Virus record (IMG/VR): IMGVR_UViG_2913152634_000006
Length of the DNA: 39,545 nucleotides
Reading direction: 5' to 3' (one strand)
From: a virus
Lineage: Duplodnaviria > Heunggongvirae > Uroviricota > Caudoviricetes
In this document: piece after piece, positions 1 to 38,386 of the stretch
Layout: every line of letters begins with the position of its first letter
Numbering within the stretch: the stretch's first letter is position 1
Made by a program: the position numbers and the translations under genes
The notes under the pieces: model-generated
The model's input: the letters and a program-made list of their open reading frames with translations, nothing else
The model's database searches: none
Told to the model about the DNA's origin: nothing

Positions 1-1020
1 TTAATCCCCCGTGGACACTGCGTGGACACTTACGCCACCTTTCAGCGGATTAAGGGCCACCGCATCCTGCAGGTAATCCGGTGCAAAATGCGCATATGCC
101 ATTGTTTGCTGAATGGTTGCGTGACCAAGAATCTTCTGAAGCGCAATAATGTTTCCTCCGTTCATCACAAAATGGCTGGCGAACGTATGCCGCAGCACAT
201 GTGCAGCCTGGCCTTTTGGTAAATCGGGCTTAACTCTTTTCAGCGCCAGGCAGAATTCCCGGTACTTCACCTCAAACAAGCCGCCTGTTTCTCTGGTTTT
301 GATCGCCTCACAAACTGCCTGCGAAATTGGCACTGTTCTCTTCCGGCCATTTTTGGTTTCAAGAAACGTTACACGGTTATGAACTATCTGTTCACCACGA
401 AGCTTACAAGCTTCACTCCAGCGCGCCCCTGTGCTTAAACACAAAAGCGCAACACGCCAGTAGTCGCCCTCCAGTGTATCGAGCAATAGCGCCACTTCCT
501 TCTGTGACAGGAACGCCATTTCTCGTGGAGATACATAAAGAATAGAAATTCCCCTTACTGGATGTTCTGCATCCCAAAGACCTATTTTTTTCAGCACGGT
601 AAACATTCCGGATAACCGATTCATGTACCTGTTAGCAGATGACGGTTTCAATCCTTCAGCTATCTTTTGAGAACGCCACGCGATAATTTTCAGCTTATCA
701 AGATCCACAGCCTGCATATCAGCGCCAAGCTCATTGATTATGTTGCGCAGTTGTTTTCGGTCTTCTTCCGCCTTACGCCTGTGCTGGCCGTGATACATCC
801 ACCACAACTCAAGCAAATCATTTAGCGTTCGACGATCACGGTAGCCCTGTATATATTCCCGCTTTTCAGCGTTCGCCATGATGTAGCGTTCAGTGGCCAC
901 CGCTACCGATTTTTTGTCAAATACCTTACGCACGCGCTTTCCCTTGCGTCCGTTCGGCCTGATGTCCAGCAAATAACGACCATCTTCGAGCTTCTTAATC
1001 GACATTACGAAGCCCTCCAA
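1..1020 (-). CDS. int: Phage integrase, tyrosine recombinase (P2/186 Int-like)
   Basis: 339-aa ORF; C-terminal region with conserved R...HxxR...Y-type catalytic context (ARWSEA, HVLRHTFAS, MAYAHF) typical of tyrosine integrases; first gene at prophage end, convergent layout with repressor as in P2. Confidence 0.9.
   Translation of the reverse strand: MEGFVMSIKKLEDGRYLLDIRPNGRKGKRVRKVFDKKSVAVATERYIMANAEKREYIQGYRDRRTLNDLLELWWMYHGQHRRKAEEDRKQLRNIINELGADMQAVDLDKLKIIAWRSQKIAEGLKPSSANRYMNRLSGMFTVLKKIGLWDAEHPVRGISILYVSPREMAFLSQKEVALLLDTLEGDYWRVALLCLSTGARWSEACKLRGEQIVHNRVTFLETKNGRKRTVPISQAVCEAIKTRETGGLFEVKYREFCLALKRVKPDLPKGQAAHVLRHTFASHFVMNGGNIIALQKILGHATIQQTMAYAHFAPDYLQDAVALNPLKGGVSVHAVSTGD
12..35. 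repeat. Candidate att core, left copy (inside the 3' end of int); contains an internal 10-bp tandem duplication cgtggacact x2
   Basis: gtggacactgcgtggacacttacgc at 12-35 recurs as gtggtcactgcgtggacatacgc at 38365-38386 (about 21/24 identical, direct orientation), bracketing the whole prophage. Confidence 0.35.
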
Positions 1021-1101
1021 TGAACCGCTCTACAATTTCTCCAGCCTCTTTCCAGCAATAATCAGACCAGACAAAAAGCAGGTCTAACCAGTTTTCTGGC
1101 C

Positions 1102-1440
1102 TCAGCGGGATAATTTTTGGATTGTTTCGGTTGAAACGCGATCTCCCTCCGAATTGCAGGAACCATCAAGAGAGAGAGCCGGAGAAATTTGCCCGACCTC
1201 CGGCATCGTTTCATCTGTTGATAACCAATAAGCATACTTCTTAAATTTAGGGTGTTTCGTAACCTTAAGTAAGGCACCCTCTGTTACTTGCTTCCCCCTC
1301 ACCTCATAGTTAGTTACCGTCCCATAAGGCAGCCCAACACAATCCGCAAACTCCTGGCGGGTCATACCTTCTGCTTCACGAATCAGGCGAAATTTTTCAC
1401 CCATGCTTGACAAAGATGCCATATCGGGCATATCCTCCAT
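1102..1440 (-). CDS. Immunity repressor (P2 C-type, XRE-family HTH)
   Basis: ORF track 1102..1476; HTH-like segment MTRQEFADCVGLPYGTVTNYE; start placed at internal ATG (MEDMPDMASL...) at 1440, ATG at 1476 is the alternative; transcribed divergently from cox as in the P2 immunity switch. Confidence 0.7.
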   Translation of the reverse strand: MEDMPDMASLSSMGEKFRLIREAEGMTRQEFADCVGLPYGTVTNYEVRGKQVTEGALLKVTKHPKFKKYAYWLSTDETMPEVGQISPALSLDGSCNSEGDRVSTETIQKLSR

Positions 1441-1480
1441 CGCAACATGCCACATCGGGCACAAACATAAAAACACTCAA

Positions 1481-1510
1481 ATAAGCCGATATAAGCCATT
1501 TTGAGCCATT
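1481..1510. promoter_or_regulatory. Candidate operator: three tandem direct 10-bp repeats (ataagccgat / ataagccatt / ttgagccatt) in the repressor-cox intergenic region
   Basis: Directly read; P2-type C repressors bind direct repeats flanking the early promoter; a TATAAG -10-like hexamer lies within the repeats about 45 bp upstream of the cox ATG. Confidence 0.4.
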
Positions 1511-1535
1511 CGAACGAATTAGGGAGATTACCACA

Positions 1536-1823
1536 ATGAGCGAATCAGAGCTTGGGGGGTTCATTCAGGTAGCACCATATCCACTTGAAGCGGTGCCATA
1601 TCAACTATTCGCCAAGATGATCGGCCGCAAGGAATCCACAGTCAGAACCATGATTGACGCAGCAAAGCTACCGACAATTGACTTTGTGAAACCAGGTTCA
1701 CTAAAGACGCGTGCATCAGAAAACTGGGTATATCTGCCAGCATTTAACGAAGGCATGCGCAAAGCGTTTTTTGAGCAACCGAAAGAACGCCGCGACGCAT
1801 GGTTGTTGTGGCTGGGACTTTAG
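1536..1823 (+). CDS. cox: Cox-like excisionase / early transcriptional regulator
   Basis: 95 aa; C-terminal NWVYLPAFNEG...RRDAWLLWLGL closely resembles recalled P2 Cox (YWVYLPAWNNG...WLMWLGL); position immediately right of the repressor, divergent. Confidence 0.8.
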   Translation: MSESELGGFIQVAPYPLEAVPYQLFAKMIGRKESTVRTMIDAAKLPTIDFVKPGSLKTRASENWVYLPAFNEGMRKAFFEQPKERRDAWLLWLGL

Positions 1824-1829
1824 TCATAA

Positions 1830-2036
1830 ATGACCAGCCATATCATCAGTGCCATTCTGATCCTTGTTTTTATTGAGATAGGCGTAATAGAGATCTATTT
1901 GTTTCGCAAGTTAACGGGACATGAAGAACGCTTTATTGAACTCAGCATTGAATATATCGCTGCTTATACCAAAGGACTTTTCCCGGCAGCTATTGGGGCG
2001 ATGTTTATAGCGTTTGTTATCTGGTTTATCGGGTGA
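1830..2036 (+). CDS. Small hydrophobic protein (two predicted TM helices), function unknown
   Basis: 68-aa ORF, strongly hydrophobic (ILILVFIEIGVIEIYLF ... IGAMFIAFVIWFIG); starts 7 nt after the cox stop. Confidence 0.4.
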   Translation: MTSHIISAILILVFIEIGVIEIYLFRKLTGHEERFIELSIEYIAAYTKGLFPAAIGAMFIAFVIWFIG

Positions 2037-2288
2037 GAAACCTGACAACCCACAACTACTGCAATGAGGGTAATTATGTGTGGCATGGACAAATTGGACC
2101 TTATGTTAATTGTAATACTATCAATTAACTTCGGTTACCTCTTAAGCGGCGCAATTCTCATGTGCGGAGGCAAACGAAAATGAACCAGCAGTCCGCAAAA
2201 CGTGAAAACAATGCGATGCGATTTAATCGCAAATATTTTGAGTTCGGCCTCTATGCCGGAATAATTAAATCTGTACAGAGTCTTTAAC

Positions 2289-2630
2289 ATGAAACAGCAA
2301 CGTAATTCACGCTTTCGCAATGGTGCAGAACGCCACGCTAACCGTTTTGCTACCAGTGCATCACGCAGCAACATCCGCTACAGCCTGAGTGATACACACG
2401 CAACGCCGGATGGCTACCCAGTAAAACAAATCGGCGAGCATGCCTGGCTGATTGAGAAAGCTGGAATCGTGATCCACAAATGCCCACGCAATCCGTTTAC
2501 CGGAAACCGCATTTTTGCTCTAAGCAGTGGCGACAATCAGTTCGGGCAGGATTTCACATTATACGAAGCACTTCGCACGGTTGATCGTCTGCTTCGCGGG
2601 CAAAGTTTTATTAAACAGGCTGATTTATAA
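2289..2630 (+). CDS. Hypothetical early protein
   Basis: 113-aa ORF, ATG 1 nt after the stop of a possible 35-codon upstream ORF; no family recognised with confidence. Confidence 0.5.
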   Translation: MKQQRNSRFRNGAERHANRFATSASRSNIRYSLSDTHATPDGYPVKQIGEHAWLIEKAGIVIHKCPRNPFTGNRIFALSSGDNQFGQDFTLYEALRTVDRLLRGQSFIKQADL

Positions 2631-2640
2631 CAGGTGCTTT

Positions 2641-2928
2641 ATGACCAAAGACCATGCACAAGGTGTATTTATCCGTTTTATTGATTTTCGCGGTGAATTG
2701 TTATTACGTGCATCCGCTATTGACGGAGTGACTCCGGCGGGTAAAAACGGAGCCGACGAAGCCACTTACGTTTATCTGAACGGCACGCGACTGCTTGTGG
2801 AACTTCCGTACCAGACCGTACGAGAAATCATTAGCGAAGCTGAAAAGGCACGCCAGGTTAATGGCGATGAACCCTATATCGAAATTATTTGTATGGATTC
2901 AGAAGCTGAAATACAGAAAGCAGATTAA
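2641..2928 (+). CDS. Hypothetical early protein
   Basis: In-frame ATG at 2641 preceded by GGTG (MTKDHAQGVFIRF...); the ORF-track start at 2527 would overlap the upstream gene by about 100 nt, so the shorter form is preferred. Confidence 0.5.
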   Translation: MTKDHAQGVFIRFIDFRGELLLRASAIDGVTPAGKNGADEATYVYLNGTRLLVELPYQTVREIISEAEKARQVNGDEPYIEIICMDSEAEIQKAD

Positions 2929-2939
2929 AGGGCGTTGTG

Positions 2940-3182
2940 ATGGGCAAAGAATATAAAACTCTCATTAACAAAGCACTTGAGCGTTTTTATTTTCGCTTAA
3001 GTGCATCAGGCGCTCATGCTGAACGTGCGGCCCGTGACTCATTGACCAGAGCAATCCGAAGTCTGTATGACGTGGCTTTTTACGCTGATGATCTGGATGC
3101 ACTTAACGAACTTTCCGAGCTGATCTGTGCCGCAGAATGCGGGGAACATATTGAACCGTATAAGCTGGGGAATATCGCATGA
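2940..3182 (+). CDS. Hypothetical early protein
   Basis: 80-81-aa ORF (GTG 2937 or ATG 2940), follows the previous gene by 9-12 nt. Confidence 0.5.
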   Translation: MGKEYKTLINKALERFYFRLSASGAHAERAARDSLTRAIRSLYDVAFYADDLDALNELSELICAAECGEHIEPYKLGNIA

Positions 3183-3292
3183 GTATATTTATCTCATGGC
3201 TTGTTCTGATTATTTCGGTGGCCTGCGCTATTGGGATTATGCGAATTATTCATTCAATAAAAAAGATTGAACGCTTTTTCACTGGCGAATAA
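3179..3292 (+). CDS. Possible 37-aa membrane peptide (MSIFISWLVLIISVACAIGIMRIIHSIKKIERFFTGE)
   Basis: ATG overlaps the upstream stop (ATGA); single hydrophobic helix; below the ORF-track size cutoff, found by hand translation. Confidence 0.3.
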   Translation: MSIFISWLVLIISVACAIGIMRIIHSIKKIERFFTGE

Positions 3293-3378
3293 CAGAGCAA
3301 ATAAAACCACAGATTAAATAAGAAAATGTAAAAACAATCCGCATTCGCGGAGGTATTCGCACACGCCAAGGAGGCGTA

Positions 3379-3582
3379 ATGGCAATTAAGCATTTTCCTG
3401 TCGTTCGTTTTACCTCCAGAGGGCGTGAATACGAAGTCGACGAACGCCTGATTACCACAATCGACAAACACCGTTCAGAAAAGGATGCACATCACATCTA
3501 TCTCACTGACGGCACTTACTTCTGCGCCACGAATGTGGTGCGGGTGAACCTTATCCGACAGGTACAGGAGTCACGCAGATGA
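3379..3582 (+). CDS. Hypothetical early protein
   Basis: 67-aa ORF with a strong SD (AAGGAGG) 6 nt upstream of the ATG. Confidence 0.55.
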   Translation: MAIKHFPVVRFTSRGREYEVDERLITTIDKHRSEKDAHHIYLTDGTYFCATNVVRVNLIRQVQESRR

Positions 3583-3824
3583 CCATTCTGGACTATATCG
3601 CCGCCAATCCGGGGTGTAGCGGTGGAGAAATCGCCGCAGCACTGAATACCCCAACCACAGCCATTAATGCGGAGTTACGCCGACTCTGGCGCAGCGGTTC
3701 AGTCATAAGAAAAGAGCGCAAAACAGGCGGTCGCTTTTCTTACCAGATAAACCCGATGCCGTTCGGGTGCGGCAATCCACTTACCAACACGTTTAACCAG
3801 CTACTGAAGGAAGCCAGAGCATGA
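3579..3824 (+). CDS. Putative small winged-helix DNA-binding protein
   Basis: 81-aa ORF, ATGA overlap with the upstream gene; DYIAANPGCSGGEIAAALNTPTTAINAELRRL resembles a winged-HTH recognition unit (motif-level inference only). Confidence 0.5.
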   Translation: MTILDYIAANPGCSGGEIAAALNTPTTAINAELRRLWRSGSVIRKERKTGGRFSYQINPMPFGCGNPLTNTFNQLLKEARA

Positions 3825-4120
3825 GCACCATCAACCACCAGAAGCTACGCGAACTGGCATTTGCCCTGCAACGAATGGCAACGCCTCAAAAATTACTGGC
3901 ATTTCGCGCAATGCTCTCGCCGTCTGCTGTGCTGGCACTGCTGAATGAGCTGGAGCACGCCAGAACCACGGCTCCTGCCATTCGCCTGACGCTCCATCAT
4001 GAAATCGCTGATTTCTGCGCGACGTTGGAGGCGCCGGGCGAACCGGAAACGCCGGAAGCAATACAGCAAGAGCTGCTGCAACGCATTGACAAGGTTTTTG
4101 ATTTTTTTCTGAACCAGTAA
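3821..4120 (+). CDS. Hypothetical early protein
   Basis: 99-aa ORF, ATGA overlap with the upstream gene, protein-like composition. Confidence 0.55.
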   Translation: MSTINHQKLRELAFALQRMATPQKLLAFRAMLSPSAVLALLNELEHARTTAPAIRLTLHHEIADFCATLEAPGEPETPEAIQQELLQRIDKVFDFFLNQ

Positions 4121-4242
4121 GAAACCAGAACATGCACACACAAAAAAACCGCTTGCCATGCCGCAATCAGTCAGGTTACATTTCCGCTGCACCTCATAAA
4201 ACGGGTGCCGGGATTTCCACCCCGCTGACAACTACAGCGCAC

Positions 4243-4265
4243 AACCGCGCCAGCGGTTTTTTTGT
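4243..4265 (+). terminator. Terminator-like hairpin (aACCGCgccaGCGGTt) followed by a T7 run inside the early region
   Basis: Directly read 6-bp GC-rich stem, 4-nt loop and ttttttt; lies in a 320-nt stretch without a convincing CDS. Confidence 0.35.
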
Positions 4266-5111: not shown

Positions 5112-5117
5112 ATCACT

Positions 5118-7943
5118 ATGACGGCAGAGTACATCAGGGACTGGCAACAACCGCGCCACGCAGTGGGACGTGAAGGAACGGGGATCCCCGTTCCTGAATC
5201 TGCGCTTTCCTCCTGGCTGGATGCCTACCGGGCAGAGAACGAGCGCCGCCAGGAAATGGCTGATGCGGCGTTCTCCGCCACGCCGCTGGGCAACCTGATT
5301 AATAAAAGCCTGGACGCACAGGAAAAACAGGACAAAACCATCACACTGGCAGGAGACGCCAGAAAACAGGCACGCGGCGCGGTGGATGAAGCCATGGCCT
5401 CGCTGCGCCTGCTGCCGTCCTATCTGCGCGATCCGCTTATTCGCCACCTCTCCTTCCTGCGCAAAAAACAGGAAGTCGATCGCCGGAAAGGCAAAAAGAG
5501 CTGGCAGGCTGAACGCTACGCGCGCGGAACCCTGCGCAAAATATTCGAACGTCTGGACCGCACCGACCACCGCTGGCTGACACCGGGTTATCGCTCCCTT
5601 GCCGGACGCGAACGCCTGGATGATTTGCTTTACCTGCCGCAGCTCAACAAGCACCAGATACAGACGCTGGCCACCATGACGGCGGCGATGTTCAGCAGCA
5701 CCTTCGAAAAACTCTGCGATGGCTTTGGCGCGACTGATGGCGAACTGACCATGGATGTAACGCTGAAGGCGTATCAGATGCTGGCCCGCATGGCGTTACA
5801 CCTGCACGCCATGCCTCCACATTATGACGCACTGACAACAGACAAAGACCGGAGGAACGAACCGGACACGGAGCTGCTGCCGGGCGCAATCCTTCGCCTG
5901 ACCTGTGCGGAATGGTGGAAACGCAAACTGTGGCTGTTACGTTGCGAGTGGAGAGAAGAACAACTCCGCGCCGCCTGTCTGGTTTCCAGAAAAACATCAC
6001 CCTATCTGAGCCAGGACGCGTTAAGCGAGTTTCGCGCACAGCGCGAGAAAACACGCGATTTCCTGAAAAGTTTCATGCTGGAAAATGAAGACGGGTTCAC
6101 GATTGATCTCGAGACAGTGTATTACGCGGGAGTAAGTAACCCGGTTCACCGTAAGGCAGAAATGATGGCCACCATGAAGGGACTGGAACTTCTGGCCGAA
6201 GCCCGTGGCGACAGAGCGGTGTTTCTGACCGTCACCTGCCCGTCAAAATACCACGCCACAACGGAGAACGGTCATCCGAACCCCAAATGGAACGGGGCCA
6301 CCATGCGCGACTCCAGCGATTACCTGGTTAACACGTTTTTTGCGGCGGTCCGCAAGAAACTGAACCGCGACGGCCTGCGCTGGTATGGCATCCGCACGGT
6401 GGAGCCTCACCATGACGGCACCGTGCACTGGCATATGATGGTCTTTGCTCATCCGGAAGAAATCGACACCATTGTGTCCCACACCCGCGATATTGCCATT
6501 CAGGAAGATCGTCACGAGCTGGGTGATGATATTACCCCACGCTTTAAGGCGGAGTACGTCGACGGCTCAAAAGGCACACCGACCAGCTACATCGCCACCT
6601 ACATTGGGAAAAACCTGGACAGCCGTGCCGTGGATGGCATCGACCCGAAAACGGGCAAGCCACGCGTTGACCACGAAACAGGTAAATCAATGGCCGAGAG
6701 CGTGGAGCGCGCCATCGGCTGGGCGCGCCTTCACCGGGTCCGTCAGTTCCAGTTCTTTGGCATCCCCTCCCGTCAGGTGTGGCGTGAACTGCGCCGCCTT
6801 GCCAGCCAGATGGCACGCAATCCGGAAGGCCCGCAACGGCTGAAAGATGATGCAATGGATGCGGTACTCGCTGCCGCCGATGCCGGGTGTTTTGCCACCT
6901 ACATTGAAAAACAGGGTGGCGTGCTTGTTCCACGCAAGGACTACCTGATTCGCACCGCCTACGACCTCGCAGATGAGCTGAACGATTACGGCGAACAGAG
7001 CGTACAGATTTACGGGATCTGGTCACCACTCATCGGGGAATCCTCCCGTGTGTGCACGCATCCGGATAACTGGAAGTTGGTAAGACGTAAACCAGAACCA
7101 GAAGACAACGCCCACGAAAATGGTTTTGACCTTCAGGGCGGCCCTGCCGCCCCTTGGACTCGTGGCAATAACTGTCCCCGTGTACAGGAAACAGGCAACA
7201 GCGGGACAGAACAGTCGAAAGAACGGCCTGCACCGTGGCCGCAGCTTCCTGACGGCGTTGAAGTGAACGAATGGATGCGCTCACTGAAACGGCACGAACG
7301 CCGGGCGCTGATGCGTTCGCTTCGTGACAAACAGGCAAAAAACAGCAGTGATGAAATGCAGAGCTGGACACAGAGCCGCAAACAGCAGCGGCCTTTGCCT
7401 GATAACCACGAATTACTCGCTAAAGAATGGCGGGAATCTGCCGAATCTCTCGGCCTGCATATCGGTGAACAGCAGATGCAGCACCTGTTACGGGGAGGCA
7501 GCCTGTACGTTGACGGCAGCATCATTGCACCGCAGGGATTTGAAATTGTACGCAAACCGGATACCCGCCCGGCCAGCCGAATCACGCAGCTCTGGCAGCG
7601 CCTGAGCCGTAATCACGGCGTAAGCAGCACAGAGATCCGTCATAACCCGGTCGCCAGCTATCTGGCACAGCTGGGGGCATCAGACCCCGAAGCCGCCGCA
7701 CGTCTGGCATCCACACTTCAGCAGGACCAGAACACCATGAAAACCCCCGTTACCGTGCTTTCTGACATGCTGCGCGCCATCCGTGACGCAGAGCACGCAC
7801 AAAGAATCAATGAAACCACTGAACGCGCCCGCCACAAGGCTACTTTGCTCCAAAAGAGAGGCAAACAGCACTTTAGTAATCAAAATGATGATGAGAAAAA
7901 ACAATTGCAAAGTTGGATATGCCTTTTCCATCATGAGGGATGA
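5118..7943 (+). CDS. A: Replication initiation endonuclease A (HUH rolling-circle initiator)
   Basis: 941 aa; HUH motif in GTVHWHMMVFAHP and paired catalytic tyrosines YIATYIGKN (Y-x3-Y) as in P2 gpA; position after the early operon; longer than P2 A (recalled 761 aa), with the 3' end running into AT-rich DNA. Confidence 0.85.
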   Translation: MTAEYIRDWQQPRHAVGREGTGIPVPESALSSWLDAYRAENERRQEMADAAFSATPLGNLINKSLDAQEKQDKTITLAGDARKQARGAVDEAMASLRLLPSYLRDPLIRHLSFLRKKQEVDRRKGKKSWQAERYARGTLRKIFERLDRTDHRWLTPGYRSLAGRERLDDLLYLPQLNKHQIQTLATMTAAMFSSTFEKLCDGFGATDGELTMDVTLKAYQMLARMALHLHAMPPHYDALTTDKDRRNEPDTELLPGAILRLTCAEWWKRKLWLLRCEWREEQLRAACLVSRKTSPYLSQDALSEFRAQREKTRDFLKSFMLENEDGFTIDLETVYYAGVSNPVHRKAEMMATMKGLELLAEARGDRAVFLTVTCPSKYHATTENGHPNPKWNGATMRDSSDYLVNTFFAAVRKKLNRDGLRWYGIRTVEPHHDGTVHWHMMVFAHPEEIDTIVSHTRDIAIQEDRHELGDDITPRFKAEYVDGSKGTPTSYIATYIGKNLDSRAVDGIDPKTGKPRVDHETGKSMAESVERAIGWARLHRVRQFQFFGIPSRQVWRELRRLASQMARNPEGPQRLKDDAMDAVLAAADAGCFATYIEKQGGVLVPRKDYLIRTAYDLADELNDYGEQSVQIYGIWSPLIGESSRVCTHPDNWKLVRRKPEPEDNAHENGFDLQGGPAAPWTRGNNCPRVQETGNSGTEQSKERPAPWPQLPDGVEVNEWMRSLKRHERRALMRSLRDKQAKNSSDEMQSWTQSRKQQRPLPDNHELLAKEWRESAESLGLHIGEQQMQHLLRGGSLYVDGSIIAPQGFEIVRKPDTRPASRITQLWQRLSRNHGVSSTEIRHNPVASYLAQLGASDPEAAARLASTLQQDQNTMKTPVTVLSDMLRAIRDAEHAQRINETTERARHKATLLQKRGKQHFSNQNDDEKKQLQSWICLFHHEG

Positions 7944-22589: not shown

Positions 22590-24749
22590 ATGAGTACCAC
22601 AACACGAAAATTTAAAACCGTTATCACCGATACAGGTGCAAAAAAATTAGCTCAGGCAGCCGCGCCAGATGGTAAGCCTGTCCGCCTGACTCATATGGCC
22701 GTGGGCGACGGTGGCGGCACGTTGCCCACACCAGACAGTAAGCAGACCCGTCTGGTGCATGAGGTGTGGCGACACACTGTTAATCGCGTCATCCTGGACG
22801 CAACACATCAGAACCGCATTATTGCGGAGCTGGTTATACCTCCTGAAACGGGCGGATTCTGGATCCGGGAAATTGGTGTATTTGATGAGCACGGCGATTT
22901 AATCGCGGTGGGCAATACTGCCGAAAGTTACAAGCCAACCGTTGCCGAGGGGTCCGGACGTGCACAAACATTTCGCACCATTCTGACCGTATCCAGCACT
23001 GCCAGCGTGGCGCTTACCGTGGATAACACCATGGTGATGGCCACAGTGGATTACGTGGATGACAAACTGAAAGAGCATGAACAGTCACGACGTCACCCGG
23101 ATGCCTCGCTGACCGCAAAAGGCTTTGTTCAACTCAGTAGCGCCACTAACAGCGATTCTGAAACGCTGGCCGCAACGCCGAAAGCGGTTAAGGCCGCGTA
23201 TGACCTGGCTAACGGAAAATATACCGCTCAGGACGCCACGACGGCACGAAAAGGGATAGTCCAGCTCAGCAGTGCAACCAACAGCACGTCTGAAACGCTG
23301 GCAGCGACACCAAAAGCGGTTAAGGCGGTAATGGATGAAACGAACAAGAAAGCCCCATTAAACAGCCCGGCACTGACCGGAACGCCAACAACACCAACTG
23401 CACAACAGGGAACGAATAATACCCAAATCGCAAGCACGGCTTTCGTTATGACCGCGATTGCCGCACTTGTAGACTCTTCACCTGACGCACTGAACACGCT
23501 GAACGAGCTGGCGGCGGCGCTGGGCAACGACCCGAATTTTGCGACCACCATGACTAACGCGCTTGCGGGTAAGCAACCGAAAGATGCCACCCTGACGGCG
23601 CTGGCCGGGCTTGCTACTGCGGCAGACAGGTTTCCGTATTTTACGGGGAATGATGTTGCCAGTCTGGCAACCCTAACAGAAGTCGGGCGGGATATTCTTG
23701 CGAAATCGACCGTTGCCGCTGTTATCGAATACCTCGGTTTACAAGAAACGGTAAATCAGGCTTCTGGCGCATTACAGAAAAACCAGAACGGCGCAGATAT
23801 TCCCGATAAAAAACTATTCCTGCGTAATATCGGCACAACAAATTCAACAACAATGTCTTTTAGTGGTGGTGCTGGATGGTTCAAACTGGCAACTGTAACA
23901 ATGCCACAAGCCAGTTCCGTGGTTTACATAAACCTGATTGGTGGCGCAGGGTATAACGTTGGCTCCCCGCAGCAAGCAGGCATCTCTGAGCTGGTTCTGC
24001 GTGCAGGAAATGGAAATCCAAAAGGTATTACTGGTGCATTATGGCGACGGACCTCGGTTGGATTTACTAATTTTGCATGGGTGAATACATCCGGTGATAC
24101 CTATGACATTTATGTAGAAATAGGTAATTACGCCACAGGTGTTAATATCCAGTGGGATTATACAAAGGATGCAACTGTACAAATTCATACATCACCAACT
24201 TATACAGCGAATAAACCAACAGGCCTGACAGATGGAACTGTATATGTAATTTACAGTTCGCACATTAAACCGACTGCTGCTGAGGTTGGGGCGTTGTCAT
24301 TATCTGGCGGTCAATTGAATGGTGCATTGGGTATCGGAACATCCAGTGCTCTTGGCGGTAACTCGATTGTTTTGGGTGATAATGACACGGGATTTAAACA
24401 AAATGGCGACGGGTATCTGGATGTTTATGCTAATAACGTCCATGTTATGCGCTTTGTCTCCGGCGGCATTCAAAGTAATAAAACCATAAATATTACAGGG
24501 CGTGTTAACCCCTCGGATTACGGTAACTTTGATTCCCGCTATGTGAAAGATGTTCGACTTGGTTCACAGCAATATTATGGCGTGAACAACTGGCAAACAT
24601 GGAATTTCCAGTGCCCGTCAGGTCATGTATTGACTGGTATTAATGTTCAGGATACAGGGTCCAATTCTGCCGATAATATAGCGGGCGTTTATTACAGACC
24701 CGTTCAAAAGTATATAAATGGCACCTGGTATAATGTAGCGAGCGTTTAA
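22590..24749 (+). CDS. H: Tail fibre protein H (constant N-terminal part plus currently expressed variable C-terminal part)
   Basis: 719 aa; tail-fibre repeat motifs ([19 protein letters not shown] twice); C-terminal [11 protein letters not shown] shared with the inverted Hv' cassette; gix-like site inside the gene at codons about 378-386. Confidence 0.85.
23127..23330 (+). repeat. Tandem duplication of a tail-fibre collar repeat (two roughly 72-bp copies, period about 132 bp) within H
   Basis: Copy 1 at 23127-23198 and copy 2 at 23259-23330, encoding [22 protein letters not shown]. Confidence 0.5.
23722..23747. promoter_or_regulatory. gix/cix-like recombination site, left (inside H)
   Basis: ttatcgaatacctcggtttacaagaa; 23/26 identical to the reverse complement of the right site and close to the recalled Mu gix sequence; central dinucleotide TC at 23734-23735. 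Confidence 0.6.
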
Positions 24750-24750
24750 T

Positions 24751-25275
24751 ATGATGCACTTAAAGAACATAAAAGCGGGTAACGCTAAAACACTGGAACA
24801 GTATGAGTTAACAAAGAAACACGGAGTTATCTGGCTTTACTCTGAGGACGGAAAAAACTGGTATGAGGAAGTGAAAAACTTTCAGCCAGACACCATAAAG
24901 ATTGTTTACGATGAAAATAATATTATTGTCGCCATCACCAAAGATGCCTCCACGCTTAACCCTGAAGGTTTTAGCGTAGTTGAGGTTCCCGATATAACAA
25001 CCAATCGTCGGGCCGATGATTCCGGTAAGTGGATGTTTAAGGACGGAGCTGTGGTTAAACGGATTTATACAGCTGACGAACAACAACAGGCCGAATCACA
25101 AAAGGCCGCGTTACTTTCCGAAGCAGAAAGCGTTATTCAGCCACTGGAGCGCGCTGTCAGGCTGAATATGGCGACGGATGAGGAACGCGCACGACTGGAA
25201 TCATGGGAACGCTACAGTGTTCTGGTCAGCCGTGTGGATACGGCAAATCCTGAATGGCCACAAAAGCCTGAATAA
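24751..25275 (+). CDS. G: Tail fibre assembly chaperone G
   Basis: 174 aa, starts 2 nt after the H stop; paralogous to the inverted G' (shared MMHLKNI...GKNWYEE...[22 protein letters not shown]). Confidence 0.8.
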
Positions 25276-25303: not shown

Positions 25304-25837
25304 TCATTCTGGTTGTTCGGGAAACGTTACTGGCAGGCTGGAGGTGTCTGTAGATTCGACCTTCTGCGCATAGAGCATCCACTCGGTTAATTTTTGTTTA
25401 TTCTCGTCGGAAATGATGCCCAGCCGTAGCTGTGAGTCCCATAGCTGGGTTTTATCCCTGACAAGTTGCACCAGGCTTTGCTTTTCATTCTCTGCCTGCT
25501 GCCTCTGTTCCTCTTCGGTATAAGTTCGCTTTATCACTACGCCATCTTTGAACATCCATTTACCCGAAATATCAGCCCGGCGATTTGCTGTAATATCAGG
25601 AACCTCAACGACGCTTGCGCCTTCCGGATTAATTGCTGAAACATCCTTTTCAATACAAATAATAACGCCGTTGTAGTCATAGACCATTTTCAACGTATCA
25701 GTCTGGAAATTCTTTTGTTCCTCATACCAGTTTTTTCCATCCTCTGTATAAAGCCATTTGATGTTAAATTGTTTCGTTAGCTGGTATTGCTCTTTTGTTT
25801 TAGGGTTGCCAGCTGTAATATTTTTTAAGTGCATCAT
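25304..25837 (-). CDS. Alternative tail fibre assembly chaperone G'
   Basis: 177 aa, paralogue of G on the opposite strand inside the invertible segment. Confidence 0.8.
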   Translation of the reverse strand: MMHLKNITAGNPKTKEQYQLTKQFNIKWLYTEDGKNWYEEQKNFQTDTLKMVYDYNGVIICIEKDVSAINPEGASVVEVPDITANRRADISGKWMFKDGVVIKRTYTEEEQRQQAENEKQSLVQLVRDKTQLWDSQLRLGIISDENKQKLTEWMLYAQKVESTDTSSLPVTFPEQPE

Positions 25838-25839
25838 AA

Positions 25840-26796
25840 TTAAATACTCCCCGCGTTATACCACGTTCCATTAATGCAATACTGAATTGGCCTTGCCTGA
25901 GTTGTATCAATTAATTCATCACGGTTTCCGTTAACTGAACCAGTAACGACATAACCTGACCTGTCAGACCAGCCGGGACCATTCCATGTCTGAACAGATG
26001 ACAGACCGCCCAGGCGAATACCTGTAATAAACCTTGAGTTACATTCTGCCTGCGTATATGCACCAACATCCCCCGCAGAGGGTTTGCGGGTTGTGGTGTA
26101 AAACTCTGACCAGTTAGCTTCAAAGCCATAACCATCACGCGCTGAACGATAAAAGATGCCGCCGTTCTTATAATTCACGCGGAACTGTACAGCAGGGCAA
26201 CTCCCCGCATTCATATTGAAGTGGAGGATTAATGTCGATGCACCACTGATATCTGCATCATAAACACCGCTATTCCAGTTCCAGCCAACAGCTTTATCAT
26301 TTGCGACCCTGCTTCCTGTTTGCCCTAAAGCAAATGCAGGCTGCTGGTTTTTCGTGTTGTAGTCTCGTCGCCAGCCAGGAGAATAAGCATCACCATGATT
26401 AATATAAGTGAATTGAGCGTTAGTAATTCCGCCACCGCTGGACGTGCTCGGCGTGGTAACGCGTATAGTCATTGCGCCGCGGGTGCCAATAACTTCCACC
26501 ACAGCACCTGCAAGACAAATATTTCCGCAACCTGTATCTGTAATTACCTTATTATTTGCATAAGCCCATGAGCCTTTGCACATCCAGTAAGGATGGTTAA
26601 ATGCCCCCTGACTCTCCAGCCACGAAATGAATTGTGCGGTTGTCCAGGCCTGACTATCGCCACCAATATTCAGCCATGAGCTATATGCGCGGCAGGCCCC
26701 AATATTTTTGGTGAAGGTATCTTTTCCCGGAATATCTGCGCCGTTCTGGTTTTTCTGTAATGCGCCAGAAGCCTGATTTACCGTTTCCTGTAAACC
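25840..26796 (-). CDS. Alternative tail-fibre C-terminal cassette Hv' (promoterless and start-less; expressed only after inversion fuses it to H)
   Basis: Open frame from the crossover in the right gix site to the stop at 25840; the frame is closed by TAA immediately outside the site; C-terminus IQYCINGTWYNAGSI parallels the H C-terminus; the ORF-track Met start (26583) is internal. Confidence 0.65.
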   Translation of the reverse strand, partial: GLQETVNQASGALQKNQNGADIPGKDTFTKNIGACRAYSSWLNIGGDSQAWTTAQFISWLESQGAFNHPYWMCKGSWAYANNKVITDTGCGNICLAGAVVEVIGTRGAMTIRVTTPSTSSGGGITNAQFTYINHGDAYSPGWRRDYNTKNQQPAFALGQTGSRVANDKAVGWNWNSGVYDADISGASTLILHFNMNAGSCPAVQFRVNYKNGGIFYRSARDGYGFEANWSEFYTTTRKPSAGDVGAYTQAECNSRFITGIRLGGLSSVQTWNGPGWSDRSGYVVTGSVNGNRDELIDTTQARPIQYCINGTWYNAGSI

Positions 26797-26810: not shown

Positions 26811-26864
26811 TGGCCGTTTCCGGCCTGCATGGCATGATTTGCGCTTTTGGACGGGAGATTCAGC

Positions 26865-27452
26865 GTGCTGATTGGCTATGTAAGGGTATCAACAAATGAC
26901 CAGAATACAGACCTGCAACGAAACGCTCTTGTTTGTGCAGGATGTGAACAAATATTTGAAGATAAATTAAGCGGGACAAAGACAGACCGACCGGGATTAA
27001 GACGCGCTTTAAAGCGCCTTCAAAAAGGTGACACGCTGGTTGTCTGGAAACTGGATCGCCTCGGGCGAAGCATGAAACATCTGATTTCTCTCGTCGGGGA
27101 ACTACGGGAGCGAGGAATTAATTTTCGCAGTCTGACCGACAGCATAGATACATCTTCTCCAATGGGGCGTTTTTTCTTCCACGTGATGGGTGCCCTGGCT
27201 GAAATGGAACGTGAATTAATTGTTGAACGTACACTGGCCGGACTGGCGGCAGCACGCGCACGGGGGCGCACAGGCGGACGTCGACCGAAGCTGACAAAAG
27301 AACAGCATGAGCAAATAGCAAGGCTGATCAAAAACGGGCACGACAGAAAACAACTGGCAATAATTTACGGCATTGGTATATCGACGATTTATCGTTACCA
27401 CCCCGCAGGAGAATCAATCGGAACAATAGAGAAGAGTCAGGAAACAAAATAA
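26865..27452 (+). CDS. Serine-recombinase DNA invertase (Gin/Hin/Cin/Pin family)
   Basis: From GTG 26865 (GGGAG SD 7 nt upstream): MLIGYVRVSTNDQNTDLQRNALVCAGCEQIFEDKLSG... is near-identical over the first ~140 aa to recalled Mu Gin, including the catalytic Ser in YVRVSTNDQ; C-terminal HTH. ORF-track ATG 26847 is the alternative start. Confidence 0.9.
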   Translation: MLIGYVRVSTNDQNTDLQRNALVCAGCEQIFEDKLSGTKTDRPGLRRALKRLQKGDTLVVWKLDRLGRSMKHLISLVGELRERGINFRSLTDSIDTSSPMGRFFFHVMGALAEMERELIVERTLAGLAAARARGRTGGRRPKLTKEQHEQIARLIKNGHDRKQLAIIYGIGISTIYRYHPAGESIGTIEKSQETK

Positions 27453-33230: not shown

Positions 33231-34340
33231 ATGACCGACACCACCATGCAATTGCTCAGTCAGAGCACAGACCCCGTGAAAATGCCGGATTTTGATATTC
33301 TCGCGGAGGGTAAAACGCTGTCAGGCGTGGCAGAGCGCCTGATGAGCCTGTCACTGACCGACAACCGGGGATTTGAGGCGGACCAGCTCACCATCACGCT
33401 GGATGATGCGGATGGTCAGTTGCAGCTACCGCCACGGGGCGCGCGCCTGACGGTTCTCATTGGCTGGAAAGGAGAACCGCTGACAGAAAAAGGCACTTAC
33501 ATTGTTGATGAAATCGCTCACGAAGGACCGCCGGACAGGCTGACTGTTTCAGCCAGAAGCGCAGATTTTCGGGATGAATTTAACGTTAAACGTGAGGTGT
33601 CCTGGCATGATGTGACCGTTGAGCGTGTGGTATCCGCCATCGCTCATCGGTATGGTCTGAAACCGCAAATCAGCGAAATGCTGATGGATATCGAAATCGA
33701 CCACGCCGACCAGACCGAAGAAAGCGACATGTCCTTCCTTACGCGCATGGCGGAAATGCTGGGCGCAATCACCACGGTAAAAAGCGGTAATCTGTTATTC
33801 ATCATGCCCGGCGGTGGCGTGAACGCACAGGGCCAGCCGTTGCCATCGTTTGCCATCACACGCAGCAGCGGCGATCGCCATCAGTTCCGCATTGCTGACC
33901 GCGAGGCGTATACAGGGGTACGCGCTTACTGGCTTGATCTTAATTACGGGAAAAAGAAAAAAGTCAGCGTGAAACGCCGCAAACCGCCAAAACCCAAAAA
34001 GGAGAAAAGCAGCAGCCGTGAAGGTGATTATATGGAAGGCGCAGAAGGCAATGTGTTTGTGTTACGCAAGACTTATCAGAACGAGCAGGCAGCAAGACGC
34101 GCAGCGGCGGCAAAGTGGCAGCAGCTACAACGCGGAGCCGCATCATTTTCCATCACGCTGGCGCGTGGACGTGCAGAACTCTACCCCGAAATGCATGGCA
34201 CGGTAACAGGATTTAAAAGCGAGATTGATAATCAGGACTGGATTATTGCGAAAGCCGAGCACACCATTGATAACAGTGGCTTTACCACGCAGCTTGAGCT
34301 TGAAGCAAAAATTCCGGAATGGATCGTAGAAACAGAATGA
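33231..34340 (+). CDS. D: Tail protein D (late control gene D family)
   Basis: Start at ATG 33231 after GGGAGGG; 369 aa; size and composition as P2 D; here divergent from FI rather than downstream of U. Confidence 0.8.
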   Translation: MTDTTMQLLSQSTDPVKMPDFDILAEGKTLSGVAERLMSLSLTDNRGFEADQLTITLDDADGQLQLPPRGARLTVLIGWKGEPLTEKGTYIVDEIAHEGPPDRLTVSARSADFRDEFNVKREVSWHDVTVERVVSAIAHRYGLKPQISEMLMDIEIDHADQTEESDMSFLTRMAEMLGAITTVKSGNLLFIMPGGGVNAQGQPLPSFAITRSSGDRHQFRIADREAYTGVRAYWLDLNYGKKKKVSVKRRKPPKPKKEKSSSREGDYMEGAEGNVFVLRKTYQNEQAARRAAAAKWQQLQRGAASFSITLARGRAELYPEMHGTVTGFKSEIDNQDWIIAKAEHTIDNSGFTTQLELEAKIPEWIVETE

Positions 34341-34462
34341 GTAAATTAGATGCATTAGCTCAGTCATGAGTTTACTGATTACGTACGGCACAGAAGCAGA
34401 CCTGATAGTTTGCTCTGTGCCAGAAACGGACATTGCCGACATCATAATCGACACAAATTACA

Positions 34463-35248
34463 TCAATCACCTATGTGATTACGTTCTATATATCTTACAA
34501 TCTTCTCTAAAGATTCAAATCCCCACCTCTGCATAGCATGTGGGAATTCTGTATATTCATAATCTTCTATGGTGAGATCCCATGTACTTTTCTTGAATTC
34601 ACACTGATATAATCGCACAGTCTTGTTTAAAACCAACCCTTCTAACACACTGCTTTTCTTAATGATTTTGTCAATGTCTTTATTGTTAATCCCAATGTAG
34701 ATAGCTGTTACCGAACTTAAATCAGTTATCTTGTCAATTAAAATATTTTCTTGCTTTTGTAATAGCCCCACTCGCTTTATTATTCTAACTTCTTCTTCAT
34801 ATTTCCAATGCAATGATTTAGTAAGCAATAATTTACTAATTACATCAGCGCTATAAATGTTTTCTTGACTGATTTTTAGTTTACTTTTTATTCGACTCTC
34901 TAAATAATTAATGTCACCTTTCTGTGCCGTAATTAGGCATTTTTCTTCATCATCAAACCCTGCCCTTTCTGTGTCAATTGCTACAACAAACCCCTGATGT
35001 TTATCAGCATAATGTGACCACATCAGTACATTGAGAGGATTTTTAGAAAGGCATAAGCAGGCAACATTTTGATTGATCTCCCCCCTCATAGCTAATGGTT
35101 CAAGCGATTCACCATCTAATGAAAGTTCATAGCCATAGCTTTCAAAAGGATCATTAAACTCACTATACGGAGTGAATTTTATAGAGATGTAACCATCTTT
35201 AAAAAATCGTTCCAATGATGTCTTATCTATATATTTATACAGAATCAT
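34463..35248 (-). CDS. AT-rich accessory (moron) gene, DUF2971-like protein of unknown function
   Basis: Start placed at ATG giving MILYKYID...; LYKY N-terminus, FNDPFE and MWSHYADKHQGFVV motifs resemble DUF2971 as I recall it; opposite strand to flanking D and ogr; strongly AT-rich relative to neighbours. Confidence 0.55.
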   Translation of the reverse strand: MILYKYIDKTSLERFFKDGYISIKFTPYSEFNDPFESYGYELSLDGESLEPLAMRGEINQNVACLCLSKNPLNVLMWSHYADKHQGFVVAIDTERAGFDDEEKCLITAQKGDINYLESRIKSKLKISQENIYSADVISKLLLTKSLHWKYEEEVRIIKRVGLLQKQENILIDKITDLSSVTAIYIGINNKDIDKIIKKSSVLEGLVLNKTVRLYQCEFKKSTWDLTIEDYEYTEFPHAMQRWGFESLEKIVRYIERNHIGD

Positions 35249-35443
35249 AATATATTCAGAATTAATTATAGGTGTTATCAGTATACAGTACTTCAACAAG
35301 TAGATGTAAAGATCCCATTTAAACGTTCCTCCTCAATACGCGGATTAAACAAATTAAAGCATCTTACTCAAAATGGACCATCAGTTGGATTTAGAGCCAA
35401 CACAACCTAGAATAGCGGCAGCACCACGTTAAGGGAGGTCGCT

Positions 35444-35704
35444 ATGTTCCGTTGTCCGCTTTGTGGCGCATCTGCCCGTATCCGCACCAGTCGTCCGGAA
35501 AATGATTCAAACACCGTGCGACAAAAGTATTACCAGTGCAACAACCTGGAATGCGGCGTATGCTTCTCAACACTGGAAGCTTTCCATAAATTCACATCGA
35601 AACACGCCTCCGGCGTTCACTCTTCAGAAGGTATCCCGTGGCATGAGCTGCCAGCTTCACACAGGGGAAACAATCAGATGAGTTTGCCTTTACCTCAGAA
35701 TTAA
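35444..35704 (+). CDS. ogr: Late gene transcriptional activator Ogr (zinc finger)
   Basis: MFRCPLCGASARIRTSR...YYQCNNLEC matches the C-x2-C...C-x4-C Ogr/Delta pattern and recalled P2 Ogr N-terminus (MFHCPLC...ARTSR...HQCQNVNC); strong SD AAGGGAGG. Confidence 0.8.
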   Translation: MFRCPLCGASARIRTSRPENDSNTVRQKYYQCNNLECGVCFSTLEAFHKFTSKHASGVHSSEGIPWHELPASHRGNNQMSLPLPQN

Positions 35705-35844
35705 CAGGCAGAATTGCCGGAGTAACAAAAAAGCGATAGATTACGCGCGGGTGCCTTTCGGCTGATGGTCGGAGGGAATACCCGAAGGCCAGATGTGGAA
35801 AGGCCCCGGAAAACATTTCTGTTTAACCGAGGCCCTAACACTTC

Positions 35845-36933
35845 TTACCTTCGCAAGTAGAAGGTTAGCGCCTCTCCTCTCAGGAGACAAGCGTTTGTAT
35901 GGGTCCACCACATATTGCAATTTTTATTCTCTTTTAAAATATATTCCACGGGCGTCATTAGTGCGAGCGCCTTGTGGGGTCTTTTGCTGTTATACAGCAC
36001 CAGATATTCCGCCAGCTTCTGGTTAAATAGCGCCAGATCTTCAAAGAGTAAAATCTCATTAAATTCAATAAACTGCTCTCTTAACGTCCGGTTAAAACGT
36101 TCACAGATAGCGTTCATTTTTGGCGTGTAGGGATAGGTCCAGAGGTGTTTGATAGCGGCTTCCTGCAGCGTTTTGTCGAAGTTTCCCAGGAACTCTTTTC
36201 CGTTATCTGTGATTATCTGGCTGATACCGACCGGGAACAACCGGGCTGCGCGGCTGAAGAAGTGATTGACGATATCACTGTTGAGTGACGGCACAGCCAG
36301 TGCCAGCGCGTAATTGCTGCATTCGTCGATCATGGTGATGACATAGCGACGCAGTTCGCCCATTCTGAGCTCAATGGCGTCCATCCCAATGAGCTCACCT
36401 GTCTTTACCGGGCGGTAGTGCTTTGGCCTGCGGGGTTTGGCAGACCGCTTTTTGACAAGCAGTGCCTTCCCCCGCGATCCCAGACGCACAGGTATCATCC
36501 GCATTTTATCATGTGCGGCAGCGATCATTCTGCCGATGGTGGAAACACTCGGACAGGCCAGATAGCGCTGTTCGCACCAGGGCTTCAGGCGAACAAAAAT
36601 CTGCTCTTTACCGAGGTTCGGCAGCTCTGTCCTGAGGCGTCGAATCTCTTTCAGCACATCGGGATGCCAGTGTTTTTTTCGTCGCACCAGAGGTGCCTTA
36701 CTGTGCGGGATTAGCCCCTCAGGTCCTTCCTTGTTCAGTAACTGACGCCACCAGTAAAGCGTGCGGCAGGACACGCCAAAGGCTTCAGAAGCTGCAGAAA
36801 TACCGTGTTTATCCCAGAAGTGCAGAGCCTTCATTCTCATTGTTGCTATATCAGCCATCACTGAAAGCCTCAACGCATAATCGGCCGTTTGGTAGTACTT
36901 AGGATAGCCAACCATCAGATGCTGCATTTGCAT
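35845..36933 (-). CDS. IS-element DDE transposase (rve integrase-core type, single ORF)
   Basis: 362 aa; N-terminal HTH-like segment (MKALHFWDKHGIS...CRTLYWWRQ), DDE-type core with ITDNGKEF; the real start is probably an internal Met (MADIATMRMK...); IS family and ends not determined. Confidence 0.7.
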   Translation of the reverse strand: MQMQHLMVGYPKYYQTADYALRLSVMADIATMRMKALHFWDKHGISAASEAFGVSCRTLYWWRQLLNKEGPEGLIPHSKAPLVRRKKHWHPDVLKEIRRLRTELPNLGKEQIFVRLKPWCEQRYLACPSVSTIGRMIAAAHDKMRMIPVRLGSRGKALLVKKRSAKPRRPKHYRPVKTGELIGMDAIELRMGELRRYVITMIDECSNYALALAVPSLNSDIVNHFFSRAARLFPVGISQIITDNGKEFLGNFDKTLQEAAIKHLWTYPYTPKMNAICERFNRTLREQFIEFNEILLFEDLALFNQKLAEYLVLYNSKRPHKALALMTPVEYILKENKNCNMWWTHTNACLLRGEALTFYLRR

Positions 36934-37225
36934 AGTGCAATCTCCCCTTACTTATCCGGAGGCAATTGCAATATCTCTGTGAACTTACACAGCGTTATGA
37001 CGCAAATTCCGTTAAAAACCCTGTTACTTTGCATAACTGCGGTAGCGATAATCTGGATCCTCCACACATCACCGTGCGAGTTACGATTCAGGTTTGCTGG
37101 CACGGAAATTGCGGCATTCTTACTATGTAATAAGTAAGATAACCGCGACGGGGGAGTAATCCCCCGTCAATCGGTTGCTAAGGTTGGTCGAAACGGCACC
37201 CTATCTCACAGACATGAACAACAAA

Positions 37226-37257
37226 CCCGCAGCGTAAAAACTGCGGGTTTTCTTTTT
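37226..37257 (+). terminator. Rho-independent terminator (CCCGCAG-cgtaaaaa-CTGCGGG + ttttcttttt)
   Basis: 7-bp GC-rich stem with a 10-nt T-rich tract read directly; lies between the IS and the com-methyltransferase cassette. Confidence 0.5.
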
Positions 37258-37304
37258 GGTGCCCTCACAAATGAGGGCACCATACATAAGCAATAGGCAT
37301 AACA

Positions 37305-37339
37305 GATCGATGCAATAAATCCGATCGATAAAAACGATC
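37305..37339. promoter_or_regulatory. Cluster of three GATCGAT repeats (three Dam GATC sites within 35 bp) upstream of the com-like gene
   Basis: GATC at 37305, 37323 and 37336, each within aGATCGATg / cGATCGATa / cGATCGATt; lies 50-80 bp upstream of the com start. Confidence 0.4.
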
Positions 37340-37386
37340 GATTTGTTATCATATCGGCAGCAGTAACCACACAAGAGGTGCCGCAA

Positions 37387-37584
37387 ATGACGCAAAATGT
37401 ACGATGCAAAAATTGCAACAAACTACTTGCCCGCGCCTCATTTCACTACATTGAAATAAAATGTCCGCGCTGCAAAACACTTAACCAGATAACGAGAGCC
37501 ATCGAGCACCCCACACACATGAGGAGTTATGACCGTGGGGATCGCAATCCAGCACCAACCAGCACATACACCGGAACACACTAA
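37387..37584 (+). CDS. Com-like zinc-finger translational regulator
   Basis: MTQNVRCKNCNKLLARASFHYIEIKCPRCKTLNQI resembles recalled Mu Com (MKSIRCKNCNKLLF...HIEIRCPRCK); ATG 37387 sits 7 nt after AGAGGTG; 3' end overlaps the downstream methyltransferase by 56 nt. Confidence 0.7.
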   Translation: MTQNVRCKNCNKLLARASFHYIEIKCPRCKTLNQITRAIEHPTHMRSYDRGDRNPAPTSTYTGTH

Positions 37585-38320
37585 GGTTTATCAGACTGAC
37601 AATGCCACGCTCTGTCGTGGGAATGCGCTGGAAATATTGCCGCTGATTGAGCCAGAAAGCATTGATGCCTTAATCACTGACCCGCCTTACAGTTCGGGTG
37701 CGACACACAAGGCCGGACGCACCAACCAGGGCAGCCATGCAAAATATCTGAACGGCGAGAACCTTCACCGCTTTGATGGGTTCGCGGGTGAAAACATGGA
37801 CGCCCGTTCGTGGGCTTACTGGACACAATTATGGATGGCACAGGCACACCGCGCAGTCAGGCCGGGCGGTTATGCCCTGGTATTTACTGACTGGCGACAA
37901 CTACCAGCTTTAACCGATGCGTTTCAGGCCAGTGGCTTTACATGGCGCGGCATCATTGCGTGGAACAAAGGGAGGGGGTCACGAACACCACATACCGGGT
38001 ATTTCCGGCATCAGTGCGAATACATCGTCTGGGGCAGCAAAGGCCATTTAGATAAATCGCCTTCGGGACCGTTCGACGGCTGCATGACGTTCCCGGTTAT
38101 CTCGTCAAAGAAAATGCACCCGACCGGAAAACCAGAAGAACTAATGGCGGAACTGGTCAGGACTGTGAATAGTGGCGGAACAGTCCTTGATCCTTTTATG
38201 GGGTCAGGGACAACGGGTGTGGCTGCACTGAAAGCAGGACGCAAATTTATTGGTATAGAAACCAGTGATCATTATTTTGATGTAGCAACACAACGGCTCA
38301 AAACGGCGATCGAACCATAA
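37529..38320 (+). CDS. DNA methyltransferase, beta-class N6-adenine/N4-cytosine type (DPPY before FxGxG)
   Basis: 263 aa; catalytic ALITDPPYSS near the N-terminus and SAM-binding VLDPFMGSGTTGVAA near the C-terminus (circularly permuted beta-class order); SD GAGGAG 2 nt upstream of the ATG; start overlaps the com-like gene. Confidence 0.85.
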   Translation: MTVGIAIQHQPAHTPEHTKVYQTDNATLCRGNALEILPLIEPESIDALITDPPYSSGATHKAGRTNQGSHAKYLNGENLHRFDGFAGENMDARSWAYWTQLWMAQAHRAVRPGGYALVFTDWRQLPALTDAFQASGFTWRGIIAWNKGRGSRTPHTGYFRHQCEYIVWGSKGHLDKSPSGPFDGCMTFPVISSKKMHPTGKPEELMAELVRTVNSGGTVLDPFMGSGTTGVAALKAGRKFIGIETSDHYFDVATQRLKTAIEP

Positions 38321-38364
38321 GAGTAAGCCCGCAATGTTGCGGGCTTACTCTACCTCTCGAAAAT

Positions 38365-38386
38365 GTGGTCACTGCGTGGACATACG
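38365..38386. repeat. Candidate att core, right copy (attR)
   Basis: Direct imperfect repeat of positions 12-35; lies between the last prophage-associated gene and the putative host gene. Confidence 0.35.

Follow-up and report, generated by a model that had tools for sequence, protein, structure and literature searches.

In lambda and P2, the integrase (Int) uses its N-terminal domain to contact the arm-type sites of the attachment site and its core-binding and catalytic domains to work on the core; integration host factor (IHF) puts a bend in the P arm that allows a single Int to span arm and core, and Cox acts on the P' side in excision. The stretch analysed here, referred to as the window, comprises 39,545 nt of the Caudoviricetes virus record IMGVR_UViG_2913152634_000006 and carries a P2-like prophage with one copy of an imperfect direct repeat near each end. 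We read these copies, with a probability of about 0.93, as the P' arm (in attL) and the P arm (in attR), that is, as predicted arm-type Int sites of a P2-type attachment site.

P2 was compared from the annotation of its RefSeq record (NC_001895), which gives the order ogr terminator, Int P arm, IHF site, Int attP core, Cox site, int stop codon and Int P' arm, with the P' arm 6 bp inside the 3' end of int. The consensus reported for the arm sites of P2-type integrases is tgTGGaCa (Nilsson et al., PMC3448106). For phage PhiSM, attP was mapped experimentally to a 17-bp sequence, ATCCTTGTTGATGAAAA, at the 5' end of pdxB (Magaziner et al. 2019, PMC6456863). The Int of the window and that of Citrobacter phage PhiSM are identical at 329 of 334 residues. 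The arrangement described below is therefore already known in kind, being the standard P2-type arm architecture at an integration site published for a near-identical integrase. The features of the attachment region are as follows.

1-1005, minus strand: int, P2-type tyrosine integrase of 334 aa (Pfam Int_N and Phage_integrase); its last nine codons overlap the P' arm
10-28, plus strand: putative P' arm, octamers CGTGGACA at 10-17 and 21-28; left copy of the repeat, colinear with the P2 Int P' arm
38320-38351, plus strand: G+C-rich hairpin with a 14-bp stem (-26.4 kcal/mol, z -8.4), directly upstream of the P arm
38364-38382, plus strand: putative P arm, octamers TGTGGTCA at 38364-38371 and CGTGGACA at 38375-38382; right copy of the repeat
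38405-38417, plus strand: perfect match to the IHF consensus TATCAATAAATTA (WATCAANNNNTTR), between P arm and core
38429-38448, plus strand: attR core TTTTCATCAACAAGGATTTT, a 20-mer identical in attB, attL, attR and attP; true right boundary of the prophage
38449-38549: host DNA by continuity with K-12, comprising the orphaned GTG start of pdxB (minus strand, 38449-38451) and the pdxB-flk intergenic region
38550-39545: flk, the host gene to the right of the prophage

Tandem octamers and the integrase

The left copy of the repeat, gtggacactgcgtggacacttacgc, occupies 11-35 within the final codons of int, and the right copy, gtggtcactgcgtggacatacgc, occupies 38365-38387. When aligned, they are identical at 22 of 23 bases, with one mismatch and a 2-nt gap. 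An exact 13-mer common to both, CACTGCGTGGACA, is found only at 16-28 and 38370-38382, against a chance expectation of 0.06 matches. The direct repeat reported at both ends by an earlier, sequence-only reading of this DNA is thus real and non-random, and its coordinates were correct to within one base. Because the pair was not among the 20 largest families returned by the default repeat finder, a pattern search was used instead.

Each copy consists of two tandem (C/T)GTGG(A/T)CA octamers placed 11 bp apart from start to start (3-nt spacer), beginning at 10 and 21 on the left and at 38364 and 38375 on the right; the unit cgtggacact, which occurs twice in the left copy (10-19 and 21-30), likewise has a period of 11 bp and not 10. 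A scan of both strands of the window recovered exactly two tandem octamer pairs, at 10 and 38364, both on the plus strand, compared with a mean of 0.003 in first-order Markov resamples of the window. Single octamers were matched at 10, 21, 27761, 38364 and 38375 on the plus strand and at 6675, 15066 and 35022 on the minus strand, a total of 8 against 4.9 expected, which is about background. The arm sequences of this prophage are TGTGGTCActgCGTGGACA (P) and CGTGGACActgCGTGGACA (P'), so that at least two direct repeats fitting the tgTGGaCa consensus lie on each side of the core, and the core common to attP and attB lies between them.

The same elements were recovered in other phages. Alignment of attP from P2, WPhi, Chuche and P88_4B11 showed that the octamer pairs are conserved, as is the block GATATAAATCCTTTTATATCA, annotated in P2 as its IHF site, and that the cores are unrelated. 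The putative IHF site of the window, located between P arm and core, is part of GATAyAAATCCTTTTATATCA, a block that can be aligned both with the IHF site annotated in P2 and with its counterpart in WPhi. An octamer-free pattern, made of the IHF block, the core and the host flank, was also used to scan IMG/VR; the 49 contigs that it found are those found when the octamers were required. All 49 IMG/VR matches to P arm plus core were attR junctions, representing 22 sequence variants, and every one of them (49/49) has the octamer pair, always equally far from the core, while the five bases after the second octamer, the 'tacgc' of the sequence-only reading, vary freely. A scan of the IMG/VR contigs for P arm, core and phage-side flank found no intact attP; intact attP sequences were taken from GenBank phage records.

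The stop codon of int is formed by window bases 1-3 (minus strand), and the protein ends in ...GGVSVHAVSTGD. Int is 49% identical to P2 Int overall, the N-terminal ~45 residues being more alike, and like P2 Int it carries Y11, D14 and R16. These residues appear to correspond to positions 16, 19 and 21 of the published alignment, in which the Y, D and R residues are named as P2-type discriminators (PMC3448106). The protein therefore has the predicted features of a tyrosine integrase with a P2-type N-terminal arm-binding domain, and binding of Int and IHF at the sites listed above would follow by homology.

The hairpin at 38320-38351 lacks a T-run and occupies the place that the ogr terminator has in P2. 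A scan of 38200-38560 for promoters and terminators gave no consensus sites and no canonical terminator.

Core, prophage junctions and competing explanations

The junctions of the prophage were located by comparing window positions 35700-39545 with 5,426 complete E. coli genomes. Nearly all of these genomes match only from window position 38429 (query base 2730) onward. All 24 sampled empty-site matches start at 38429 and fall on pdxB, flk and yfcJ. The first two of these genes are adjacent in K-12 and diverge from each other across a gap of 98 bp; the window joins K-12 within the first codons of pdxB and is continuous with it from 38429 onward at 98.5% identity. Read on the minus strand, the core at 38429-38448 corresponds to pdxB codons 2-7 plus the first two bases of codon 8. 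Where genomes carry an identical int, the gene directly to its left is pdxB; this applies also to TUM2820, the only genome of the complete E. coli set with both the same insertion sequence (IS) and the same cargo.

A four-way comparison of attB (K-12), attL (L004, L005 and TUM2820), attR (the window, C7 and TUM2820) and attP (Chuche) identified exactly one common segment, the 20-bp core, which occurs once in empty sites such as K-12. In the three lysogens that provided attL, 182-183 bp separate the int stop codon from the core copy on its left, which falls beyond the edge of the window. The breakpoints of host and phage homology, at 38429-38448 on the right and 182-183 bp outside the window on the left, do not coincide with the repeat.

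These junctions decide against the explanation offered by the sequence-only reading, in which the repeat was an att core duplicated by integration and the prophage ran from 11-35 to 38365-38387. The two copies do have the properties that such a core would show, being direct, in the same orientation, non-random and situated at both ends of all phage genes. However, the empty attB, which had been expected to hold one copy next to flk, contains none in the pdxB-flk region of K-12 even when up to 5 errors are allowed. Host homology resumes 41 bp beyond the right copy, at 38429, and phage DNA in the lysogens extends 182-183 bp to the left of int, so that the real attL core lies to the left of position 1, beside pdxB, and not inside int. 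These are the two outcomes that the sequence-only reading had itself named as refuting its boundaries. In free phage genomes a single molecule carries both copies, separated by about 300 bp that include the real core, and the copies are not identical, owing to one mismatch and a 2-nt indel. Comparison with the empty sites and with attP thus rules out the repeat as the att core, and the probability left to that explanation is close to nil. The earlier description of the copies as the signature of attL and attR stands in the broad sense that the P' arm lies in attL and the P arm in attR; as a description of the core and of the prophage boundaries it does not.

Chance similarity without function deserves just as little credit. 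Although single octamers elsewhere in the window occur at about the background rate (8 observed, 4.9 expected), two tandem pairs were observed where 0.003 were expected, and the pairs occupy a conserved place in distinct phages and in all 49 junctions. A somewhat less improbable, though still very unlikely, explanation is that the octamer pairs are bound by another phage protein, Cox or the C repressor. P2-like Cox and C proteins likewise recognise direct repeats, and the assignment of the pairs to Int in this prophage is a prediction, which we counted in favour of this explanation. On the other hand, the homologous positions in P2 are annotated as Int arm sites; Cox has its P2 site between core and int, and C has its operators at Pe/Pc. 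P2, WPhi and the present group have kept the octamer in spite of their differing immunity and Cox systems, and the C-cox switch region of the window contains no octamer.

Several points weigh against the assignment of the two copies to the P' and P arms. For this Int, the identification of the arm sites rests on homology to P2. The window ends at the int stop codon, and the attL of its own genome lies outside, its position being read from lysogens. The distance from core to P' arm is ~190 bp, about twice the 87 bp of P2, and neither Cox boxes nor a second IHF site were recognised in this ~190-bp spacer; it showed no convincing repeated motif, and what it has in common with the C-cox switch region amounts to trivial A/T-rich 7-9-mers.

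Under the arm-site reading, the order on the circular phage genome would be cargo hairpin, P arm, IHF site, 20-bp core, ~190-bp spacer, int stop codon and P' arm, and the predicted junction of the excised circle would read ...TGTGGTCACTGCGTGGACA, 46 nt, TTTTCATCAACAAGGATTTT, TAACCC..., ~183 nt, TTAATCCCCCGTGGACACTGCGTGGACA. The octamer pairs, spaced by one helical turn, would be bound by the N-terminal arm-binding domain of a heterobivalent tyrosine integrase. Arm-bound Int would be brought to the core through bending by IHF, with the participation of Cox during excision, and strand exchange would take place within the core sequence that the phage has in common with the first codons of pdxB. 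Since integration separates the arms by the whole prophage, they come to resemble a terminal direct repeat.

A core variant beginning TTTTCCTCAAC..., with one mismatch, is present in phage P88_4B11 and in three IMG/VR attR junctions; in P88_4B11 (L006 3806-3825) it reads TTTTCCTCAACAAGGATTTT, and it is retained at attR in lysogens. Because the phage-type C is retained in attR, the crossover would seem to sit to the right of core position 6.

When the boundaries are read from the repeat, the right end of the prophage is placed 41 bp short, and 38388-38428 are wrongly dropped from it. In the corrected map, the prophage lies in the 5' end of pdxB, attL is outside the window, and the hok, IS and com-methyltransferase genes are mobile cargo beside attP. 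Host DNA resumes at the true core, and flk was rightly placed outside the prophage in the sequence-only reading. The value of the result is one of annotation: terminal direct repeats of P2-like prophages can be arm-type Int sites, and taking them for the core misplaces both ends.

Integration also splits pdxB, whose native promoter, GTG start and first 7 codons stay at attR. There the pdxB remnant (window 38405-38451, minus strand) reads into phage DNA and gives a 14-codon stub, VKILVDEKNKDLIY, before a stop codon. At attL, phage DNA supplies AAGGAG and a TTG start, giving MSETEKGL-KILVDE...; the fusion in lysogen L004 (2799-2842) reads TTG-SETEKGL-KILVDENMPY..., as compared with V-KILVDENMPY... 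in K-12, and the ~190-bp spacer between core and P' arm thus holds the rebuilt 5' end of pdxB. RefSeq annotations of pdxB in lysogens differ on the start (385, 370 and 378 aa). Expression of pdxB in lysogens would draw on the AAGGAG and TTG start of the spacer, possibly together with read-through from the C-int operon, and Int at the P' octamers, inside the 3' end of int directly upstream, could link pdxB to the state of the prophage. We regard it as improbable that pdxB (vitamin B6, essential) is expressed in lysogens entirely from phage DNA and that P'-bound Int could couple this expression to the prophage state.

Cargo and other regions of the window

Between the last core P2-like gene and the attachment site, the following features were identified.

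35444-35704, plus strand: ogr, late-gene activator (Pfam Ogr_Delta), the last core P2-like gene before the cargo
35896-36990, minus strand: IS481-family IS of 1095 bp; plasmid copies match exactly these bounds
36997-37137, plus strand: hok-family toxin gene, 46 aa (Pfam HOK_GEF), in the same position in Chuche and P88_4B11
37387-37584, plus strand: com (Pfam Zn_ribbon_Com), phage cargo
37529-38320, plus strand: N6/N4 DNA methyltransferase gene (Pfam N6_N4_Mtase, PF01555), phage cargo

The IS, hok, com and the methyltransferase gene lie inside the prophage, to the left of the core, as the sequence-only reading had concluded for the IS and the com-methyltransferase genes. In the free phage Chuche, ogr, hok, com, the methyltransferase gene, attP and int are contiguous, with the com-methyltransferase cassette between hok and attP. 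This cassette was found at a coverage of at least 80% in 169 E. coli genomes. The com gene, which resembles the zinc-ribbon gene com of Mu, overlaps the start of the methyltransferase gene by 56 nt, and its partner is of the PF01555 type and not mom; this organisation suggests Com-type translational control of the methyltransferase.

The IS is flanked by a 6-bp target duplication, AGCGTT, at 35890-35895 and 36991-36996, and has imperfect terminal repeats (TGTA...ATATTGCAATT). Its transposase matched the NCBIfam IS481 model (NF033577) with an E value of 1.7e-65 and 221.4 bits, marginally under the 224-bit cut-off. With a DDE transposase, terminal inverted repeats and a short target duplication, the element fits the IS481 family. 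The transposase open reading frame (ORF) extends 51 nt beyond the end of the IS into the flanking DNA. The IS segment is missing from phages Chuche and P88_4B11, in which the site is empty. In the window it sits exactly between the upstream region of hok and the hok ATG (36997), and it probably uncouples the toxin gene from its promoter and from mok; the locus resembles the IS-inactivated chromosomal hok loci of K-12. The hok coding sequence itself (36997-37137 against L007 2380-2520) is strongly unlike the allele of Chuche and P88_4B11, although both flanks are near-identical, which suggests an exchange of alleles or cassettes within the cargo region.

Three further regions of the window were noted. 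The segment 8129-10689, a hotspot between gene A and the portal gene, encodes a D12-class adenine methyltransferase that matched PADLOC PD-Lambda-5_B (E 1.6e-122) and, after it, a 565-aa ATPase of the ABC/AAA_15 type, for which the matches to PtuA, AriA and GajA were weak. The two genes probably form a defence system. An AT-rich gene for a 278-aa DUF2971 protein lies between D and ogr (34463-35299, minus strand) and matched the PADLOC candidate PDC-S31 (E 3.7e-27); it is missing from phages Chuche and P88_4B11 and from the prophage of strain C7. In the segment 24741-27452, a gene for a serine recombinase/invertase (26847-27452) stands next to ORFs of opposite orientation (25304-26583) downstream of the tail-fibre genes, and the inverted repeats 24745-24815 and 25773-25843 show 75% complementarity. 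This arrangement looks like an invertible tail-fibre segment for host range, of the Gin/Cin type.

Comparison with described phages

The attachment site has the same order of elements as that of P2, and in both phages each arm consists of two direct octamers of the TGTGG(A/T)CA type placed 11 bp apart. The P2 arms read TGTGGTCAatgTGTGGACG (P) and TGTGGACActgTGTGGACA (P'); the first P-arm repeat is TGTGGTCA in both phages, the IHF block is homologous, and the final codons of int contain the P' arm. The two sites differ in that the P2 core, AAAAAATAAGCCCGTGTAAGGGAGATT, belongs to an intergenic host site whereas the core of the window belongs to pdxB, in that the spacer between core and P' arm measures 87 bp in P2 and ~190 bp here, and in that the interval from ogr to the P arm contains cargo genes here and none in P2.

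The PhiSM attP sequence ATCCTTGTTGATGAAAA is the reverse complement of core positions 1-17 and lies 6 bp inside the 5' end of K-12 pdxB. Because the PhiSM record is cut at att, the comparison covers Int, the P' region and the core and not the cargo beside attP. The P' regions agree, and in both phages an AAGGAG Shine-Dalgarno sequence and a TTG start rebuild pdxB; restoration of pdxB by these phage-borne elements has been proposed, and PhiSM lysogens grow on minimal medium (PMC6456863). Unlike the present analysis, that study reports the core alone, without arm sites, and the isolation host of PhiSM is C. rodentium.

Both Chuche (PP925824) and P88_4B11 (NC_049391) have an intact attP with the P arm, IHF block, core and P' arm on one molecule, and both differ from the window in lacking the IS and in carrying a different hok allele. 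Chuche shares the hok-com-methyltransferase cargo, whereas P88_4B11 has other cargo and one mismatch in the core.

A more distant analogue is the attP of lambda (P1, P2, P'1-3), in which IHF helps a heterobivalent Int to link arm sites with core sites. The principle is the same, but the arm and core sequences are unrelated and the arm sites differ in number and orientation, so that lambda is an analogue of the site described here and not a member of the same group.

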